From positions 1 through 64,000 of the IMG/VR virus record IMGVR_UViG_3300049137_000091: a stretch of DNA of 64,000 nt. One strand, given 5' to 3'. The stretch is from a virus. Its lineage: Duplodnaviria > Caudoviricetes. Below, piece by piece: positions 10,023 to 22,300 of the stretch (the stretch's first letter is position 1; the number at the start of each line of letters is the position of its first letter). The position numbers and the translations under genes are program-made. The notes below the pieces were generated by a model, which worked only from the letters and a program-made list of their open reading frames with translations, searched no databases and was not told the DNA's origin.

Positions 10023-10652
10023 TCAGCCCTGCGGGCCGAACGGGTTCGGGGCCGCCGCGCCGCCGCCCTGCGGGCCGAACGGGTTGGGCGCCTCGCCCTC
10101 GCTGGCCGCGAGGAACTGGCCGGCCTTCTTCGTGTTCTGCGCGGCCGGGGTGTACTGGGCGACGAAGGTGTGCGCGAACTTGCTGCCGCTCAGCTTGACG
10201 TCGGCGCCCCGGGCCACCTTCAGGTAGCCACCGATCTCCGGCGCGTCGACTCCGGCCTCCTTCATGGCCTTGCCGATCGCACCCGCCATGCGGCCCTTGA
10301 CGTACAGGACGCGCATGCCGTCGTCCTCCGGCAGCGCCTTCTCGATGTACTGGTTGGTCTCCCAGGTGACGCCCGTGGGCTCGCCCTGGAGTTCGATGAC
10401 GAGCTGGTCCACCGGCTTGGCCGTGGCCGGGAACTTCAGGTCGGACTGCTTGACCCGCTCCTTGCCCTCCCAGAACAGCAGCTCGCCGCTGTTCATGTCG
10501 GTCTGCTGCGCCATGCGGAAGGACTCGATGGTGCCCTCCACGACGAAGCCCGGCTTCGGGAACTTGGCGGCGACGGAGCCGCCGCCCCCGAGGAACTGGG
10601 CGGCGCGAACGGCCTCCACGGCGAACGGGTCGGTCATCGGTGCAGTGGTCAT
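10023..10652 (-). CDS. Putative ssDNA-binding/recombination protein
   Basis: Beta-rich core, flexible NPFG-repeat tail, position next to exonuclease and resolvase. Confidence 0.5.
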   Translation of the reverse strand: MTTAPMTDPFAVEAVRAAQFLGGGGSVAAKFPKPGFVVEGTIESFRMAQQTDMNSGELLFWEGKERVKQSDLKFPATAKPVDQLVIELQGEPTGVTWETNQYIEKALPEDDGMRVLYVKGRMAGAIGKAMKEAGVDAPEIGGYLKVARGADVKLSGSKFAHTFVAQYTPAAQNTKKAGQFLAASEGEAPNPFGPQGGGAAAPNPFGPQG

Positions 10653-10733
10653 CCTGTGTTCCTGTCTCGTGTGTCCTACGTGGTGTGTCCCGCCCCGGTC
10701 GGGGAGGGCTGGAGCCGGCGGTGCGTGGCTCCC

Positions 10734-10821
10734 GTGCGCGGCCGGGGTCTCGAACCCCGGGTCTCTTCGGACGGCCGGGCCGGGATGTCCGAAGGGCTCT
10801 GACCTGTTGAGCTACCGCGCG
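10734..10821 (-). ncRNA. tRNA-like RNA with aberrant anticodon arm
   Basis: GCGCGG/CCGCGC acceptor stem, U8-A9, D arm GCTC-AACAGGTCA-GAGC, T arm CCGGGG-TTCGAGA-CCCCGG; 8-bp stem plus 14-nt loop in place of the anticodon arm. Confidence 0.65.
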
Positions 10822-11046
10822 ACCAGCGGTTAACGTCCGCCGACAGACCCCGAGCCGGCCACCGCTGTAGGTCTTTCGCCCTTGGGCTACTTGCCGCACG
10901 GCTGGCGCGTCGTTGGGTCTTCTCAGGCCCCGGGGCCGGGGGAGCGGAACCCCGGGGCAGTCTCTGTGGAGTTGTGACGCTTTGTCACGAACTTCTGGAA
11001 CGCCCGGTGTTGCTGCGTTCCGTGTACTTATATGGTACCCCGGATC

Positions 11047-11064
11047 ATGGATTAGTTAAACCAT
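11047..11064 (-). promoter_or_regulatory. 18-bp AT-rich operator box upstream of the tRNA-like RNA
   Basis: ATGGTTTAACTAATCCAT on minus strand. Confidence 0.75.
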
Positions 11065-11078
11065 TTTCCGGGGTCCTT

Positions 11079-13868
11079 TCAGCCGCCGGGTTCGGCGAGT
11101 TGCCGCAGGCGGGACTGCATGAGACGCACCAGTTCGTCCAGCTCGGCGGGGGACGCCCCGGCCTTCGTCGCCTCGTCCCAGACGGCCGCCGCCTCGCCCT
11201 GCGTGGTGACGACGGCCGCCCGATCGCGCAGCGACGCCGGCCGCACCGTCGTGCGCGAGGTGACTCCGGTGTCCGGGTCGTAGTCGCCCACCATCGGCGC
11301 CGACCGCACGACGTCGGCCGCCGCCCGCTGCGGCGCGAACGTCTGCTGCTCCGACACGGCGACCGGGGCCGCCAGCTTGCGGTTGTTGCGCCAGGCACGC
11401 ACCCGCTCACACAGCACAGCCGCGTTCCAGCCCGACTCCAGGTCCAGACCCCACACGGCCGGCTCGATGCCATCGGTCTTCTCCACCGGCAGGTGGACGA
11501 TCACGCCGACGTCCGCACGGATCACCGCGTCCCCGACAGGCTTCGGGTCCCACGCCTCGGCGTCCCAGTCGTACCGGCCCACGGTGATCAGGCCCTGCGC
11601 GTAGACGGCGAGCTGAATCGCGATCTCGCCCCAGCCGTACGACAGGTCCCGGCCGGTCTTCTTGTCGCCGATCACGTACTCGCCCGGGTTCAGCGTGACC
11701 GGGCCCCGGCCGGTGTTGACCGTCAGCGGCTTGGTCACCTTGTAACAGTTGTCGCTGGTCCCGGCCACGCCGTACTGCTTGACGAGCGTCGTGAACTCGA
11801 TCAGGTTCGGGACCGGCTCCAGGCCGGTCGCCTCCAGCAGCGCGATGTAGGTCTCGACGTCGGCCCGCATGTCCGGCTGCACGCGCCCGAGCACGCTGCG
11901 CGGTCCGGCCGGCGTGTGCCAGGCCCGGTCCACCAGCTCGGTGAAGGAGTGCATCGCCGTACCCAGCTTGGCAGCGACCTTGTCACCGGCCGCGCTGGTC
12001 AGCGTCTCCGTCAGCTCGTCCAGCAGTTTCTTGTCGGCCCGCACGTGCTTGCCGTGCGCGCGGGAGACGACGTCGGGCCGCAGCGTGGCGCCCAGCAGCG
12101 TCATCCGCTTCTGCCACTGGGACAGCGCGTAGGTGTCGCTGATCGACTTGGCGAACGTGGTCGCCCGGGTCCACCCCTTCTCCTTGCCGGTGTCCGGGTG
12201 CGGCAGCAGGTAGCGGCCCCACTTGTCGCGCTTGGCCTCCTTCTCGCCGTGCGCACCGGACCCGGCGGCGAGGAAGGCCGCCGCCGCGTCGGCCGGGTTC
12301 TGCTGCGGCTGTGTGGGCACCGACGGACGGCCGCCACCCAGGAAGGCCGCCGCCGCTGCGCTCTGGTCAGTCACCGCAGCACTCCTGCCGTTCGTAGCCG
12401 CCCTGCCCGTCGGCGCGGATGATGTCACCGAACTCGATTCCGGCGAAACAGCCGGAGCATTCGCCGTCGTAGCTGGCCTCGAACCAGGGGCCGGGGCCGT
12501 CGTCGCCGGGGCCGCCGGCGAGGAAGTCAGCCGCTGCTGCGGCGTCGTCACGGTGCTGCACTGGGTCTCCTGTTCCTTGGTCTGCGGAGCGGGGACCCGC
12601 TCCACGATCTCTCCGAGGTTGGCGAGGTCGCCGGTCACCCCGTCGTACGGGCCGCCGACCACGACGGCGTGGATGACGCCGTTGGTCTCGCCGGTGACGC
12701 GCATGGTGGCGCCGCCCCGGACGAAGTGATCCCCGGTCTCCAGGTGTCCGAGCAGTGTCGGACCGATACCGCGCGCCGCCATGGCGTCCAGCACGGTGCC
12801 CGTGCCCTCCGACTCGGCGGCGAGCAGCCCGGCCAGCGGCGACGGCACCGGGACGGCCGGGACAATCGGGTCGCGGGTGCCGCACAGCACGCACTCGTTG
12901 ACGTCGCGGCCGTCCTCGTCGGTGCCCGCGTAGGCCACGCCGACCGGGTGCGTGCACGGCGTCCCGCAGGCAACGCACACGGCCCGGCCGTCCTCGACAC
13001 CGAAGGTCGCGTCGTCGTGATGACAGAGGCGCCCGCCCTCGGTCATGCCGGGCGGGATCTTGTTGGCGGTCGTCCGGCGGTCGCACTCCTCGCACGCGGT
13101 GACTCCGTGCGGGACGTCCGTGCCGCAGCCGGGGCAGCGGTGGTCGTCGGTGTCGCACTTGACGCAGTCGGAGTCGCGCCCGTTGGCGGCCTGCCGCATC
13201 ACTGAGCAGTCCGGCGAGTCGCACGTCTCCTCTGGGCCCTCGTGCACCCACTTGGTGCCGGACGGGTCGGTGTACTCGTGGTGCTCGGACGCGGCCGGCT
13301 TCGCGTCGATCAACTCGCGGAGCTGGTCGGCCTCCGACTTGACCTCGCCGCACACGATGCACGCGGTGGCGCCGTACTGGTCGGTGTCGTACTCGGGGTG
13401 CGAACAGGGCTCCGTCTTCGGCGCCGGGATGACCGGCTTGTCCGCGCCCCGGAAGGCGTGGCAGTCGTGGCAGGCGCCGATCTCGCGGTGTTCGCAGTCG
13501 AAGGCGATGGTGGCCACGCGGCCGTCGGTCGTGCCGATCTGGTCTGGGTACTCGCCGAGCGGGAAGTCGGACCCGCCGGGGCAGGGCCGGGGCACCGCCT
13601 CCGGCGTCAGGTGGCTGCGGGCCCGGCCGTTGGCGGTGAGCACGACGGGGTGACGGCAGACGCGGCACTGGTGGCCGTCGGCTCCAGTACCCGTCGGCCG
13701 GCCGGTCTCGCCGGCAGGCGGCATGCCGATGCCCTTGCACTTGCGGGAGTCCGGGCCGGACTGGTGGTCGGGGTTGTCGGTCAGGTGGTGGCGCATCCCG
13801 CCGGACGCGGTGAGCGTGCACGTCTTGCCGCAGACAGGGCAGGGCAGCTTGTCCTTGGTCTCGGTCAT
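11079..13868 (-). CDS. PD-(D/E)XK (Cas4/RecB-like) exonuclease; long ORF with Cys/His-rich N-terminus, probable internal start at 12374
   Basis: RDKWGRY, GTAMH, GVAGTSD, IGDKKTG, IQLAVYA motifs; many CxxC pairs in the N-terminal half. Confidence 0.75.
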   Translation of the reverse strand: MTETKDKLPCPVCGKTCTLTASGGMRHHLTDNPDHQSGPDSRKCKGIGMPPAGETGRPTGTGADGHQCRVCRHPVVLTANGRARSHLTPEAVPRPCPGGSDFPLGEYPDQIGTTDGRVATIAFDCEHREIGACHDCHAFRGADKPVIPAPKTEPCSHPEYDTDQYGATACIVCGEVKSEADQLRELIDAKPAASEHHEYTDPSGTKWVHEGPEETCDSPDCSVMRQAANGRDSDCVKCDTDDHRCPGCGTDVPHGVTACEECDRRTTANKIPPGMTEGGRLCHHDDATFGVEDGRAVCVACGTPCTHPVGVAYAGTDEDGRDVNECVLCGTRDPIVPAVPVPSPLAGLLAAESEGTGTVLDAMAARGIGPTLLGHLETGDHFVRGGATMRVTGETNGVIHAVVVGGPYDGVTGDLANLGEIVERVPAPQTKEQETQCSTVTTPQQRLTSSPAAPATTAPAPGSRPATTANAPAVSPESSSVTSSAPTGRAATNGRSAAVTDQSAAAAAFLGGGRPSVPTQPQQNPADAAAAFLAAGSGAHGEKEAKRDKWGRYLLPHPDTGKEKGWTRATTFAKSISDTYALSQWQKRMTLLGATLRPDVVSRAHGKHVRADKKLLDELTETLTSAAGDKVAAKLGTAMHSFTELVDRAWHTPAGPRSVLGRVQPDMRADVETYIALLEATGLEPVPNLIEFTTLVKQYGVAGTSDNCYKVTKPLTVNTGRGPVTLNPGEYVIGDKKTGRDLSYGWGEIAIQLAVYAQGLITVGRYDWDAEAWDPKPVGDAVIRADVGVIVHLPVEKTDGIEPAVWGLDLESGWNAAVLCERVRAWRNNRKLAAPVAVSEQQTFAPQRAAADVVRSAPMVGDYDPDTGVTSRTTVRPASLRDRAAVVTTQGEAAAVWDEATKAGASPAELDELVRLMQSRLRQLAEPGG
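12367..12561 (-). CDS. Nested out-of-frame 64-aa Cys-containing protein
   Basis: GTG with GGAG SD and ACCAAGGAA; high GC3 where the long frame uses rare codons; WFEASYDGECSGC...ECC. Confidence 0.7.
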   Translation of the reverse strand: MQHRDDAAAAADFLAGGPGDDGPGPWFEASYDGECSGCFAGIEFGDIIRADGQGGYERQECCGD

Positions 13869-14474: not shown

Positions 14475-17123
14475 CTACGCCACGAAACGGTCCAGCTTCC
14501 GTGACGCGGTGACGACCGCGAACAGGTCGGACGCCTCACCCATGCGGATGCCGTCCGGCGTCTGCACGCCTGCGTAGGCGAGCAGCCCGAGCAGCTTCGG
14601 CGTGGCCGGCTTGCGCCTCCAGGCGGCCGTCTTCGTCATGTTCAGCGTGCTGCGGTCCTGCGCTTCCGACTCCGCCCAGGCCATCGCCATGCCCAGGTCC
14701 AGCCCGGTGTGCAGCTTTTCCCAGTTGCCCCGGGGCGGGGCGTGGACCACCGACCACTTCTCCGGCTCCTCGTCCGGCCACAGCGCGATCTCGCCGCTGT
14801 CACCGATCGGGATGAACTGGACGCCGCCTGGGGTGCGCAGCCACGAGTACGCGGCCGACCCGGTGAACAGGTCGATTTCCCGGTGCGTCAGCTCGAACGC
14901 AGGCGAGCCGGCCGGGACCTTGCGGCCCGCCTCCTCCGCCTCGCGCACGACGGCTTCGGCCAGCGTCTCGCCGTCCTTCACCTGCCGCACGGCGGCGCCC
15001 GGGTCCAGGTCGATGAGCGTGCACAGCGACCCGCCGGTGCCGCCCAGGATGAGCACCGAGGCGTCCTTCTTCCCGGTCGCCGGCGACGGCCGCAGCACCC
15101 GGCCCACCATCTGGATGAAGAGGGGCTGCGACTTGGTGGGCCGCGCGATGACCGCGCAGTCGGCGAACGGGAAGTCGGCGCCCTCGGTGAGCACCATGCA
15201 GTTGACCAGCGTGCGCACGGAGCCCTCGCGGAACCTGCGGTAGATGTCCAGCCTCTCCTCGCGGGGCGTCCCGCCATGCACGTAGGCCGCGCTCGGCAGG
15301 GCCGCCGCCGTCTCCCGCGCCACCTCGACGGTCGGCGTGAAGACGATCGGCGACCGCCGGTCGGCCGCGTGTTCCTCCAGCACCTTGGCGATGATCTGCG
15401 GGCCGCCTGACTCCATCAGCGCGCGTCCGAGGTCTTTCGCCTGGTAGTCGCCTGCCGTCCGCTTGACGTCGGCCAGGTTCAGGGTGTCCACGTCGATGAT
15501 CCGGGAGCTGACGTCCACCAGGTAGCCACGGGCCATCGCCCACAGCGGGGACCGGGTGTAAACCGCGTCCTCCCAGACACCGCCGAGACCCTGACCGTCG
15601 CCCCGGGCCAGCGTCGCCGTCACCCCGATCGCGCGGGTGCCCGGCATGCCGGAGAAGCACCCGAGCCCGGCCAGGATGTTGCGGTAGGACACGGCCGCCG
15701 CGTGGTGGCACTCGTCCACGATGACCAAGCCGACCGGCCCGTACTTCTCCTGCGAGTCGGCGAGCTGCTGGAAGCGCTTCTCCCGGGCCAGGGTCTGAAC
15801 GGAGCAGACCATGACGTCGGCGTGCACATCGTTGTCCCCGGCCTTGACCTTGCCTGCCGACAGGGCGGGTTCGGTCTGCCGCAGCTTGGCCAGCGTCTGG
15901 TCGGCGAGTTCGTCACGGTGCACGAGGACGACGACGCGCGTCCCCTCCGTCTCGACGTGCTCCACGGCCATGCGGGAGAAGACGACCGTGTTGTGCGTGA
16001 CGATGTGGTGTCGTGTCACCTGATACAGACTGTCCGGGGCCGCCACGCTGATGCAGCGGATCTCCTGGTCCTCTACGCGCTCCACGCCCACAACCGCGCG
16101 CCGGGGTTCGAGCGTCCGGCGCGGGCCGCCGGGGCGGTTCTTGCGCGGCGTGGAGAACGCGGGGGTGTCCGACGGCATGAGGATGTTGACCACGATGTTC
16201 TGGTACGCCTTGCCGTTGGACGGCTGCACCCGGTCGTAGGCCGACACGCTGGCGGTACCTCCCAGGGAGCACACCAGCTCCCGCACGTCCTCCGCCAGAC
16301 GCAGCGACGTCGTGTGGTAGCAGACCGCCCGGCGTTCGGCCCGGCTGGACCCGTCGTTGTCCATGAGGCCGTGCAGCAGGGCGACACGCTGCCGAGTCCC
16401 CGCCTCCAGGTACCGGCGCGGGATGAACTTGTCCGCGCTGTTGACGCACAGGCCCATCGCACGGACGTGTCGCTGCACGCCACGGACGATGAACCGGGGG
16501 CACCACTTCGTCTCGTCTACGGAGACCCGCGTCACCTCGTGCTCCGCCTGAACGCGTTCGGCCACGTGCTCGTCGGGCGTCGTCAGGACGGGGCTCGTGT
16601 GTGACAGGTAGCCGTTGGCGATCAGGGCGCCCAGAGTGTACGGGCCAACAGGGAGTTCCACGTCGGCGGTGACCGTGCCGGACATCGGGATGGACCACCG
16701 GTTGTTCCGGCCGTGCTTCAGCCCGAGGCCCGCGATGTCCGCCGTGGAGAGCGTCCGGACCTCCCCGGCCGTGCGCCGGTGCGCGTAGTCCCGGGCGGTC
16801 CACAGGTGGTCGGCGTCCGTGACGACGGACGACCCGTCCCCGAACGTGACCCGGTACGCGGGTAGCACGCCCCGGTCGTAGACTCCGGTGATCTCGGTGG
16901 GCCGGCCGTTGCTGCCGAAGACGAGGTCCCCGGCCTGGAGGTCGCCCCACTTGCGCAGGCCCTGCGGGGTGGGGATCTCGGTGTCCAGCGGGTGGCCTTT
17001 GCCCATGCCGGTGGCCAGCACGATGGCCGGCCGCTGCATGCCCTCTTTCCACGCGGTGTGCACGGCGTCGATCGCCTCGCGCTGATAGGGCCGCAGCGTG
17101 ATGTGCTCCTGCGCCGGGCTCAT
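14475..17123 (-). CDS. SF2 DEAD/DEAH-type helicase interrupted by an intein
   Basis: LRPYQ, ATGMGK|T, DECHH, TATLARGD, LTEGAD, QMVGR motifs. Confidence 0.9.
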   Translation of the reverse strand: MSPAQEHITLRPYQREAIDAVHTAWKEGMQRPAIVLATGMGKGHPLDTEIPTPQGLRKWGDLQAGDLVFGSNGRPTEITGVYDRGVLPAYRVTFGDGSSVVTDADHLWTARDYAHRRTAGEVRTLSTADIAGLGLKHGRNNRWSIPMSGTVTADVELPVGPYTLGALIANGYLSHTSPVLTTPDEHVAERVQAEHEVTRVSVDETKWCPRFIVRGVQRHVRAMGLCVNSADKFIPRRYLEAGTRQRVALLHGLMDNDGSSRAERRAVCYHTTSLRLAEDVRELVCSLGGTASVSAYDRVQPSNGKAYQNIVVNILMPSDTPAFSTPRKNRPGGPRRTLEPRRAVVGVERVEDQEIRCISVAAPDSLYQVTRHHIVTHNTVVFSRMAVEHVETEGTRVVVLVHRDELADQTLAKLRQTEPALSAGKVKAGDNDVHADVMVCSVQTLAREKRFQQLADSQEKYGPVGLVIVDECHHAAAVSYRNILAGLGCFSGMPGTRAIGVTATLARGDGQGLGGVWEDAVYTRSPLWAMARGYLVDVSSRIIDVDTLNLADVKRTAGDYQAKDLGRALMESGGPQIIAKVLEEHAADRRSPIVFTPTVEVARETAAALPSAAYVHGGTPREERLDIYRRFREGSVRTLVNCMVLTEGADFPFADCAVIARPTKSQPLFIQMVGRVLRPSPATGKKDASVLILGGTGGSLCTLIDLDPGAAVRQVKDGETLAEAVVREAEEAGRKVPAGSPAFELTHREIDLFTGSAAYSWLRTPGGVQFIPIGDSGEIALWPDEEPEKWSVVHAPPRGNWEKLHTGLDLGMAMAWAESEAQDRSTLNMTKTAAWRRKPATPKLLGLLAYAGVQTPDGIRMGEASDLFAVVTASRKLDRFVA
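15990..16997 (-). mobile_element. Class-3-type intein (336 aa) with LAGLIDADG homing endonuclease
   Basis: Starts with Gly after GMGK, ends THN before Thr; W in block B (DHLW), C in block F (IRCISV), T in block G; LGALIANG and LHGLMDNDG motifs. Confidence 0.85.
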
Positions 17124-19317: not shown

Positions 19318-22300
19318 ATGACCACCTTCGCGGAGCCGGGGGCGCCCAACGGCGCCCCCGCACTCGACCCCGTCCACGTCGCCGAACTGGCCTCCAGCGT
19401 CATCTCCGACGAGGTGCGCGACGCCCGGGGCTACCGGACCCTGTACGGCACCCCCGAGGACCGCGCCCTGCTGCGCGAGGAGTCCATCCCCGTCTGGGCG
19501 TGGCGCGAGGACACCGCGTTCCCCGGCCTGCTCATCCCGACGTATCGGGTGACCGGCGAGCGGATCGGCGCCCAGTTCAAGCCGGGCGTCCCGCAGGCCA
19601 ACGGCGAGAAGACCGTGAAGTACGCAACCCAGGTCGGCCGGAAGCCGCGCCTGGACGTCCCGCCGCCGGTGGCCGACTCGGTGCGCGCCGGCGTGGCCCC
19701 GCTGTGGATCACGGAAGGCGTGAAGAAGGCCGACTCTCTGGCGTCCAAGGGGCTCGCCTGTGTCGCGCTGTCCGGCGTCTACAACTGGCGCAACCGGCTG
19801 GGCACGCTGGGCGACTGGGAGGACATCCCGCTCAAAGACCGCACGATCGTCATCTGCTTCGACTCCGACGCCCGGCACAACCCGATGGTGCTGCGGGCCA
19901 TGCAGCGCCTGGGGGCGTGGCTGGAGTCGAAGCGGGTCGCCGACATCCGGTACCTGATCGTTCCGGAGAAGGTCGGGGACGTCGAGGTCAAGGGGGTGGA
20001 CGACTACTTCCTGGCCGGCGGGACGCTGGAGGGTCTGCGCGACGCAGCCACCACGGAGATGCCCTCCGACAACACGCGGGACGCGGCCTTCAGCGACGCC
20101 GTGCTCGCCGACACGGTGTGCCTGGAGCGGCTGGAAGGCTCGTACAAGTGGGCCTCCGGCATCGGCTGGCGGCGCTGGAACGGCAAGTTCTGGGAGGACG
20201 CCACCGACACCACCGTGCTGGAGGAGATCCGGCGCTGGGCTCTGGAAGGCTTCCAGCGGGTGCTCGACAAGCAGCGCGAGTCGCCCGGCAAGGATCTGCG
20301 CGCCGAGATGGACGGCTGGCGCAGCGTGCTGGCCGCGTCCAAGCTGGGCAACCTGCTGAAGCTGGCCAAGGGCGTCTTGGAGGCGGCGGCGTCCGACTTC
20401 GACCACGACCCGGATGCGCTCAACTGCCAGAACGGCATCCTCAACCTGCGCACCGGCGTGCTGGAACCGCACGACCCGGACCGGCTGATGACGAAAATCT
20501 GTGGCGCCGACTACATCCCGGGCGCCAAGCACCCCGACTGGGACCGGGCGCTGGAGGCCGTCCCGGAGGACGTGCGGGTCTGGTTCCAGCTCCGCATGGG
20601 GCAGGCGATCTCCGGTCACATCCCGCCGGACGACTTGATCCTGTTGCTCCAGGGCGGCGGGTCCAACGGCAAGTCCACCGTCATGGACGCCATCTCCCGC
20701 GCGGCCGGCGAGGCCAACGGCTACCACACCGTGGTCGCCCACCGGGCCCTGCTCGGCAACGCCTCGGACAATCACCCCACCGAGATGATGGACTTCATGG
20801 GCGCCCGCCTCGCGGTGCTGGAGGAGACGCCGGAGGCCAAGCGGCTGGACGTCAACCGGGCGAAGCAGCTCGCCGGCACCAAGTTCATCAAGGCCCGCCG
20901 GATGCGGCAGGACCCGGTCACCTTCGCGACCAGCCACACCCTGGTGATCAACACCAACAACCGGCCGCTGGTGGACGAAACCGATCACGGCACCTGGCGC
21001 CGGCTCGCCCTGCTGTGCTTCCCGTTCACCTTCCGCAAGCCGGGGGAGCCGTGCACGGGACCCAACGACAAGCCGGGTGACGCCACGCTGCGGCAGCGCC
21101 TGGCGACCGACGAGACGGTCCCGGCCGCCGTGCTGGCGTGGCTCGTGGAGGGCGCCAAGGCGTGGTACGCGGCCGGGCAGATCATGCCGCCGCCCCCGAA
21201 GCGGGTGGAGGACGACACGCTGGAGTGGCGCCGCGAGTCCGACCTGGTGCTGTCCTTCATCGGCGACTGCCTCACCTTCGACTGGAACTCTCACGTCACC
21301 ACGAAGGAACTGCACCAGGTCTTCAACAAGTACCTGGAGGAAAAGGGCCACCGGGAGTGGACGGACCGGACGCTCAAATCCCGATTCGGAGGCCACGACG
21401 AGTGCACGCGGAACGGCGTGCAGTGGAAGAAGATCAGGAAGCGCAACGGCCGTTCCACACTCGGCGGACACGAGCCCACGGGCGTCAACTACTACGCGTG
21501 GCTCGGTGTTCGCTTCCAGGACCCGAACGAAGAAGACCAGGTCAGTGGAGGTAGTACCGACGGTGTACCGCCTGTACCGTCTACTCCCTATAACCGTGAA
21601 ATTGACTCCCGTATAGGGGTATACGGAGGAGACGGTACAGGCGGTACAGGCCCGGTACGCACCCCCGGGGCGAACCCGTTCGCGGACGCCGCAGGGGCCG
21701 AAGCGGAAGCCGATCACACCCCCGTCCGCGCGGCCATCCCCGCCCCGTCCCCGGCGCCCGACGACACCCCCGCGCCCCGCCGTGGCGGCGTCGTCGGCTT
21801 CGACCTGGAAGGTCACAGCGCCAAGAGGCTGTTCACCCACACCGACATCGGCGGCGACCCCTACGTCCGTCTGTCCGGCTGGGTGGAGGCCGACGGCACC
21901 GAGGTGATCGCCAACAGCCCCGAGGAGCTGATCCGCCGGCTGGAGGAGGCCGACGAGATCAGCGGCCACAACATCCTCGGCTTCGACCTGCTGGCGCTCG
22001 CCCGCCACCACGGCGCCGACTACGACGCCCTGGCCGCCAAGGCGCTCGACACCTTCCGGTGGGTGCAGGTCATCGACCCGCCCGGCGCCGCCCACCAGAA
22101 GCCGTGGAGCGAAAAGGGCTACTACGGGCTGGACAAGGCCGCGCAGCGTCACGGCATCAACGGCAAGACCGCCGACCTCAAGGCGATGGCCTACCAGTAC
22201 GGGCCCGAGGAGCTGCACGGGAAGAAGCTGACCAAGGACGAGCGCGAAGAGGAGGGCTTCGGCCGCATCCCGGTCAACGAGCTGAAGGTGTACTTCTCCG

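Follow-up and report, generated by a model that had tools for sequence, protein, structure and literature searches.

A non-decoding, tRNA-shaped RNA element in a conserved phage leader is a candidate processing and stability module

Mimicry of tRNA by noncoding RNAs is well known from tmRNA, Y RNAs, mascRNA, and viral tRNA-like ends. In mascRNA/MALAT1 and in the tRNA-linked small RNAs of murine gammaherpesvirus 68, a tRNA-like body serves as an RNase P/RNase Z handle that yields separate stable RNAs. The C4 RNA of phages P1/P7 and the CI RNA of satellite P4, both from enterobacterial phages, are small RNAs that host RNase P excises from an operon leader and act by base pairing on phage transcripts. 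Here, we describe E1, a tRNA-shaped RNA element on the minus strand of a 64,000-nucleotide (nt) stretch of viral DNA (hereafter, the window), which is part of a complete IMG/VR virus record (IMGVR_UViG_3300049137_000091; 89,468 bp, ∼70% G+C). E1 lies within the ∼430-nt leader of a replication-module gene for an OB-fold-like protein. The reading that we favor, tentatively and with slightly less than even confidence, is that E1 is a conserved, non-decoding, tRNA-Met(CAU)-derived module acting in RNase P-type processing and stability. This RNase P reading is strengthened by an actinobacterial precedent, the YrlA RNA of Mycobacterium smegmatis, whose tRNA-like domain is an RNase P substrate in vitro and is both cleaved and CCA-tailed in vivo (Chen et al. 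2014, PMC4201824).

Compared with tRNA-Met(CAU) (RF00005), E1 shares U8-A9, the D arm sequence, G18-G19, the T loop UUCGA, and a similar acceptor sequence, whereas it lacks the 5-bp anticodon stem with its 7-nt loop. Its acceptor has 6 bp, or seven layers with an N1 × A72 mismatch, and some members carry hairpin insertions in the D loop or bulges in the acceptor. E1 and YrlA (RF02553) are both noncoding mimics of the D arm, T arm, and acceptor of tRNA. However, YrlA ends at its "anticodon" side in a Ro60-binding helix and is encoded beside Ro60, whereas E1 ends at the acceptor. A tRNA-like body within a longer (in our case, predicted) transcript is also common to E1, mascRNA, and the murine gammaherpesvirus 68 RNAs, which are eukaryotic or viral-nuclear; a mascRNA model score of 15 bits, against a gathering score of 42.5, gives no evidence of homology to E1. 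Unlike E1, the C4 and CI RNAs have no full D/T elbow. The tRNA-like domain of tmRNA likewise joins an acceptor/T stack to a long helix that replaces the anticodon arm, whereas E1 has no mRNA-like reading frame, pseudoknots, or alanine identity pair (G3:U70). Identification of E1 as a tmRNA was rejected because ARAGORN finds none and the arm reaches at most 40 nt. The make-up of E1 is distinct in that it combines a normal tRNA topology and a full elbow with a freely evolving hairpin arm, all within an mRNA leader of a Streptomyces phage-plasmid.

At the window locus, E1 consists of the following parts.

10733..10821, minus strand: E1, tRNA-shaped RNA element, complete cloverleaf from the unpaired N1 to the 3′ A-C-N tail (sequence, fold, ARAGORN -i, covariance model, and covariation in 16 sequences)
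10815..10820, minus strand: acceptor stem, 5′ strand, 6 nt, partner of 10736-10741 (paired in 100% of 16 sequences)
10796..10814, minus strand: U8-A9 and D arm, with a 4-bp stem and a 9-nt loop containing G18-G19 (near-invariant in 14 full-length homologues)
10765..10794, minus strand: replacement of the anticodon arm, an 8-bp stem with a 14-nt loop (arm sequences differ among homologues)
10742..10760, minus strand: T arm, a 6-bp stem with the canonical loop UUCGAGA (100% paired; two pairs with double changes)
10733..10741, minus strand: acceptor stem, 3′ strand, and unpaired tail A-C-G, CCA not encoded (sequence; A-C-C in most homologues)

The element opens with a single unpaired C (10821) ahead of the acceptor stem, followed, after the first acceptor strand, by U8-A9 (10814-10813) and the D stem (10812-10809 with 10799-10796). 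The long arm is formed by a stem (10794-10787 with 10772-10765) and its 14-nt loop (10786-10773); a 4-nt variable stretch (10764-10761) then leads to the T stem (10760-10755 with 10747-10742), the T loop (10754-10748), and the 3′ strand of the acceptor (10741-10736). This cloverleaf reading of 10821-10733 agrees with an earlier note on the same DNA, made from the sequence alone, which had recognized U8-A9, the D arm, and the T loop on the minus strand. The coordinates also bear out the 8-bp stem and 14-nt loop that it saw in place of the anticodon arm, and the A-C-G tail its remark that CCA is not encoded. The 6+6 acceptor/T stack that it reported holds for the window, owing to one additional G-C pair in the T stem, and fails for most homologues, which have 6+5 bp (7+5 counting the unpaired N1 × A72 layer). 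A CAT triplet to which it drew attention at the expected anticodon offset is unique to the window; this triplet is coincidental, since no homologue conserves it. Finally, the statement that U33 is absent needed correction: given the 8-bp stem, the second base of the loop is a U, and what is missing is a conserved U33-anticodon-purine loop.

Positional homologues of E1 were found in 15 other records, which are elements of ∼85 to 107 kb, giving 16 sequences with the window's copy (individual records are cited below by our L and G handles where they need to be told apart). They were collected by BLAST of a relative's genome, D-arm pattern scans, loci beside the neighboring protein, and a genome scan. 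In every homologue, the element occupies the same leader in sense orientation, ∼80 to 170 nt ahead of the start codon. A covariance model (R1), built from five members with a hand-drawn structure, recovered and aligned all members and scored the window's E1 at 68.8 bits (E 4e-12). We adopted this model since MAFFT alone misaligned E1 with a second tRNA-shaped RNA of the same genome, E2. In the resulting 16-sequence alignment, standard pairs fill 94.2% of the cells, compared with 84.6 ± 0.8 upon shuffling, and 15 of the 26 pairs show double changes, compared with 4.6 ± 1.4 (0 of 500 shuffles reached 15). Sliding the partners by 1 to 3 columns reduced pairing to 28 to 47%. The acceptor and T helices are paired in all 16 sequences. 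Double changes occur in four of six acceptor pairs (from L201 and L009) and in two pairs of the T stem (from L195 and L204), and both sides have changed at six of seven pairs in the outer helix of the long arm. Independently, MAFFT plus RNAalifold on four full leaders recovered the acceptor, D, and T helices, and single-sequence folding returned the cloverleaf for most members. The compensatory changes whose absence would have counted against the element in the earlier note are thus present among the homologues. With 15 positional homologues and covariation, the comparative sequence evidence confirms E1 as a real and conserved feature.

Three relatives found through the neighboring protein in IMG/VR showed no clear E1, and one of them, L009, was later shown to hold a decayed cloverleaf; the more distant relatives L199, L010, and L011, which carry homologues of the downstream gene, have no E1 element. 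A coding explanation for E1 was also considered and rejected, as the element lengths (69 to 113 nt) differ by non-multiples of three and the stem changes are compensatory.

Conservation along 12 leaders is strongest in two peaks. The first (10841-10802; 0.96 and 0.91) comprises the hairpin upstream of E1 and the 5′ half of the element, and the second (10741-10722; 0.93) the 3′ strand of the acceptor, the A-C-N tail, and the start of a 3′ hairpin. Within E1, conservation is lowest in the long arm (0.69 to 0.73). U8-A9, the D stem, GG, and UUCGA are retained in 14 of the 16 members, and the elbow nucleotides U8, A14, G18-G19, T54-Psi55-C56, and A58 are found in the window and in the same number of members. 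Most members have a 5-bp T stem, compared with 6 bp in the window, and the acceptor of two members contains a bulged U. In most homologues, the arm consists of two helices of 29 to 40 nt overall, without a common triplet, and an inner 4-bp helix presents a C-rich apical loop, a motif kept in 8 of the 16. The 8-bp/14-nt arm of the window is a shortened version of this structure, and the window's E1 is the only full-length member in which both the inner helix and the C-rich apical motif have been lost. The two most diverged copies are informative: L202 has no D arm and an altered T loop, and L009 has lost the elbow motifs, and both keep the acceptor/T stack. The coaxial acceptor/T helix, the T loop, and a single-stranded 3′ tail are common to all 16 members, including these two decayed ones. 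The conserved core is thus the acceptor/T stack plus the elbow nucleotides, with a long arm and a D loop that vary freely. Four members (L192 1010-1122, L197 1002-1113, L195 1017-1124, and L201 967-1072) contain a hairpin inserted in the D loop, placed after GG in two and before GG in the other two; a comparison of L195 with L201 shows covariation in the inserted stems as well.

Exactly the same D arm is found in genuine tRNA(CAU) genes from high-G+C organisms and phages, and among the chromosomal sequences of two E1-bearing Streptomyces genomes, tRNA-Met(CAU) matches model R1 best, at 42 bits. On these two grounds, E1 is best described as a remodeled tRNA-Met(CAU)-type gene. Neither the window's copy nor the homologues have the 5-bp anticodon stem, 7-nt loop, U33, and purine 37 of a decoding tRNA, nor its 12-bp stack of a 7-bp acceptor on a 5-bp T stem with an NCCA end (the window has a 6+6 stack, and most members have one of 6+5). 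The earlier description of a non-decoding tRNA-like RNA therefore stands, with the upper tRNA half conserved and covarying in 16 sequences and no anticodon conserved. As side observations, other metagenomic tRNA(CAU)-type genes (L066/L152, L117/L157, L177, and L072/L123/L126) have the same D arm and 10 to 35 extra nt between the D and T arms, and remodeled anticodon arms may thus be more widespread than the clade of E1. AT-rich phage contigs hold tRNA genes (Lys-UUU and Pro) with 14- to 22-nt anticodon-loop inserts according to ARAGORN (L035 4630-4718 and 5496-5589; L036 2464-2555).

Standard tools largely pass over E1. Default ARAGORN reported no tRNA and no tmRNA in the window, and Rfam gave nothing there at gathering score. 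At permissive E-values, the Rfam matches in the E1 region were at chance level, the highest being YrlA (16.7 bits, E 1.5, against a gathering score of 69) along with mascRNA. With the Rfam tRNA model, neither the E1 region (E up to 10) nor six homologues (E up to 2) gave a match, and Rfam as a whole found nothing over these six. When introns were allowed, ARAGORN called exactly two genes in the whole 89-kb genome, namely, E1 and 76820-76917. The minimum-free-energy fold of E1 is the cloverleaf; with a z-score of only −1.75 relative to shuffled sequences, the single sequence does not go beyond chance. Apart from one chance match, a gapped pattern of D arm, long gap, and T arm retrieved nothing but tRNAs with introns from AT-rich phages. 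No earlier description emerged from literature searches on tRNA-like RNAs in actinobacteriophages, Streptomyces, and minihelices, and the E1 family, which matches no Rfam 15 family, appears to be undescribed. By sequence and structure, it would represent a new family of tRNA-derived RNAs in Streptomyces phage-plasmids, within the known tRNA-like noncoding RNAs.

A blastn search of the E1 region against GenBank phages produced no orthologue and only T-arm look-alikes, which led to a related 43-nt motif. In this mini-helix, a GG-containing linker of 11 nt joins a 5-bp acceptor to a T arm with a 6-bp stem and a canonical loop, and the A-C tail is the same as in E1. It is carried by phages of Streptomyces (Yosif, Joe, Saftant, and Alsaber), Mycobacterium (Konstantine group), and Gordonia (Cafasso group) and by many IMG/VR contigs (e.g., L006 1489-1531, L007 1489-1531, L008 1485-1527, and L012-L033). 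Each genome has one to three copies, which are intergenic, in sense orientation, and placed right after a stop codon and before a hairpin. The alignment of 19 distinct copies has all its cells paired, with covariation at two acceptor pairs and between one base of the linker and T-loop position 60 (AU 14, GC 3, GU 1, and UG 1). No Rfam family matched the 43-nt motif, and a literature search with its T-arm sequence found no match. E1 and the mini-helices may be two ends of one continuum, since L202, a positional orthologue of E1, is itself of the mini form. A further mini tRNA-like form, at L029 9033-9079, differs in its T stem, has an acceptor of 7 bp, and is the best sub-threshold match to mascRNA (26.4 bits versus 42.5).

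The surroundings of E1 in the window are as follows.

10653..11078, minus strand: conserved leader/intergenic region housing E1, 426 bp, including an AT-rich promoter-like box at ∼11025-11062 (syntenic and alignable in all E1-bearing relatives)
10824..10842, minus strand: hairpin 2 to 3 nt 5′ of E1, with a 5-bp stem and a 9-nt loop (RNAalifold pairs at alignment columns 249-253/263-267 invariant in four leaders; highest conservation peak, 0.96)
10711..10732, minus strand: hairpin directly 3′ of E1, with a 6-bp stem, a 10-nt loop, and no U tract (stem invariant in 4/4, present in 13/16, conservation 0.93)
10023..10652, minus strand: downstream gene, 209 amino acids, phrog_1911, whose leader contains E1 (predicted fold weakly like OB-fold nucleic acid binders)
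11079..13868, minus strand: upstream gene, exonuclease-like in its C-terminal part (phrog_466, E 5e-64)

We read E1 as a processing and stability module because its conserved core is the part of a tRNA that processing enzymes read. The acceptor/T helix, T loop, elbow, and 3′ tail are recognized by RNase P and by 3′ trimming, CCA-adding, and T-arm modification enzymes, and an acceptor/T mini-helix is the classical minimal RNase P substrate. Consistently with this reading, the two most diverged copies gave up the elbow and kept the acceptor/T stack; E1 is always in sense orientation in the same leader, between two conserved hairpins; and the related, covarying mini motif with the same A-C tail recurs in other actinophages. 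The comparison establishes what E1 looks like, how it is conserved and covaries, where it comes from, and its place and orientation in the leader; that it is transcribed and cleaved and influences the downstream gene is what we infer. In such a scheme, host RNase P would cleave the leader where the acceptor stem begins on its 5′ side, host enzymes might then trim the 3′ side and add CCA, and a compact, stable tRNA-shaped RNA would be released. This would leave an upstream leader that ends in the hairpin at 10824-10842 and a downstream message that starts near the one at 10711-10732, with the stability and expression of these parts uncoupled. Among the three functions put forward in the earlier note, that of an RNase P processing signal seems to fit the conserved parts best. 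Its suggestion of a decoy for anticodon nucleases is unsupported: these enzymes read the anticodon loop, which E1 lacks, and the corresponding part of the element is unconstrained.

Several points weigh against a processing role. A search of public sequencing runs listed no RNA run with the E1 sequence. The acceptor/T stack measures 11 bp in most members (12 to 13 in the window) and reaches 12 only if the N1 × A72 mismatch is counted, and the acceptor of two members is interrupted by the bulged U. Pre-tRNA leaders do not usually have a conserved hairpin 2 to 3 nt upstream of the expected cut. For processing alone, neither the full elbow nor a long arm would be required, and the C-rich apical loop in 8 of the 16 members hints at a further function. 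Finally, the pair counts given above were taken on an alignment that had been fitted to the covariance model.

E1 could instead be a trans-acting regulatory RNA, in which the tRNA body would serve excision and stability and the apical loop would act as a seed for mRNA targets or as a protein handle. We regard this as a minor possibility. The C-rich loop that eight homologues present on the inner 4-bp helix is suggestive, as actinobacterial small RNAs use C-rich loops as seeds, and what makes the idea attractive is E2. This second tRNA-shaped RNA of the genome lies outside the window on the minus strand (76820-76917, equal to L037 12820-12917) and comprises a 7-bp acceptor, a D arm, a T arm, and a long arm ending in a loop. 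It has orthologues in G001, G005, and a Streptomyces contig, with compensatory changes in the acceptor and D stems. The 14-nt core of its loop is invariant in three phages, and 10 of these bases are complementary to a start-associated leader motif whose 8-nt form occurs 38 times in the window's genome (G000), 48 times in G001, and 30 times in G005. For E1 itself, two findings weaken the case. Neither inner helix nor apical motif is left in the window's copy, and no target was found: complements of the apical loop in the genomes of two relatives amounted to the element itself plus scattered chance matches, with no enrichment. Other members have arms with unrelated tips, and nowhere in the element is conservation lower than in the arm. 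As for the start-associated motif, it is a 7- to 9-nt word, in many cases with 3 more nt at its 5′ side, that precedes many starts by 10 to 30 nt; the window has about 44 sites (e.g., 23, 401, 6032, 13894, 19298, 24408, 41381, and 44233). Start-associated sequences are known from Cluster K mycobacteriophages (PMC3203893).

It is improbable that E1 is a decoy or sponge for a defense system or toxin that attacks the acceptor end, T arm, or elbow of tRNAs, e.g., nucleotidyltransferases of the AbiEii/MenT type. The conserved part is exactly an acceptor/T stack with a free 3′ tail, similar mini-helices occur at one to three per genome in unrelated actinophages, and this phage has two tRNA-shaped RNAs. 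However, AbiEii/MenT-type toxins use CCA as their substrate end, which E1 does not encode, and a fixed place in one leader between conserved hairpins is more typical of a cis element. A role as a cis-acting operator, bound by the OB-fold-like product of the downstream gene or by a host tRNA-binding protein, is in turn quite improbable. T4 gp32 and threonyl-tRNA synthetase (ThrRS) regulate translation by binding their own mRNAs, the start codon follows E1 by ∼80 nt in a leader conserved over its whole length, and all the structural matches of the downstream protein are to OB-fold nucleic acid binders. These matches are nevertheless weak (best Z 5.4; Foldseek E at least 0.017), the distant homologues of the gene in L199, L010, and L011 do without the element, and the retention of nucleotides engaged in tRNA tertiary contacts points to the tRNA machinery rather than to an idiosyncratic binder.

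A functionless tRNA pseudogene in decay, or a remnant of an attachment site, is a very poor prospect. The ancestry in a CAU-type tRNA is clear, L202 and L009 are decayed, L199 has lost the element, and the arm of the window's copy is truncated; yet 16 homologues keep the fold with compensatory changes, the 5′ half of E1 is the most conserved block of the whole intergenic region, and an attachment core would not require the 5′ acceptor strand. We give equally little credence to a working tRNA, whether decoding after removal of a short intron or aminoacylated for non-ribosomal use. Intron-allowing ARAGORN does call E1, and the E2 homologues of two phages encode a 3′ CCA, but the anticodons assigned to E1 change from one homologue to another (Gly-GCC in the window, Arg-CCG in G005, and no call in G001), so that removal of the insert yields no common identity among orthologues and an intron-containing tRNA was rejected. 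Moreover, there is no conserved U33-anticodon-purine loop, the stack varies in length, the acceptor can be bulged, the anticodon required by methionyl-tRNA synthetase (MetRS) is absent, and, to our knowledge, bacteria do not splice such tRNA introns. The least credible reading is the Y RNA-like mimic of the earlier note, i.e., a YrlA-type partner of Ro60: YrlA is the best Rfam match, weak as it is and without any counterpart in six homologues at E up to 2, its topology (open at the anticodon side and closed at the acceptor) is the reverse of that of E1, and a PF05731 search with positive controls found no TROVE/Ro60 gene in the 89-kb genome. Nor does this genome have a gene for a CCA-adding enzyme or RtcB; without any of these three genes in the phage, no dedicated partner of E1 is indicated.

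The intergenic region, estimated at ∼420 bp in the earlier note, measures 426 bp (10653-11078), and its AT-rich box is a putative promoter, although a consensus scan for promoters and terminators in the E1 leader region came back empty, including at the 3′ hairpin (10711-10732), where it found no terminator-like site. Further hairpins are predicted in the leader, one at an inverted repeat (∼10975-10990) and a G+C-rich one at ∼10925-10960 with some compensatory changes across four sequences. For the 209-amino-acid downstream protein, Pfam and PDB sequence searches were without match, and structure searches listed only weak OB-fold-type rows. The surrounding minus-strand module also includes helicase, RuvC-like, and other DNA metabolism genes. 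Within it, an 882-amino-acid helicase gene (14475-17123, minus strand) has a LAGLIDADG-like domain match in its N-terminal third, the same third that matches terminase and primase families in PHROG, which suggests an intein or a fusion. In the relative G001, a tRNA-Glu(CUC)-like gene with a noncanonical T loop is located at 20787-20858 (L183 787-858, minus strand), and ARAGORN calls no counterpart in the window's genome.

Homologues of the 209-amino-acid protein are found on contigs of ∼85 to 107 kb, several of them from Streptomyces isolates, and one of them, the linear plasmid pS1D4-14.2, is complete. When species-representative genomes were scanned by pattern, four Streptomyces assemblies and no others showed the E1 element. 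Cultivable strains with such an element include Streptomyces sp. S1D4-14 (with pS1D4-14.2), S. africanus NRRL B-24243, and Streptomyces sp. NRRL S-455. On this evidence, we assign the virus to a Streptomyces host and to the phage-plasmid type.

On a broader and more speculative view, which we consider unlikely at present, tRNA bodies of actinophages would be a general chassis for noncoding RNAs. E1, E2, and the mini-helices would form one continuum of RNAs excised by RNase P and stabilized by their tRNA body, with specificity in the variable arm, the C-rich loop of E1 being a seed or protein handle for replication-module genes or host messages, or the acceptor end would soak up tRNA-directed defense. 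Elements of this kind would matter for annotation, since tRNA finders miss or miscall them. If the processing model is true, bacterial viruses would split their transcripts by means of tRNA "punctuation," and E2 would offer a route into the unexplained start-associated sequences of actinophages. The covarying mini-helices in phages of Streptomyces, Mycobacterium, and Gordonia suggest that the principle is widespread.

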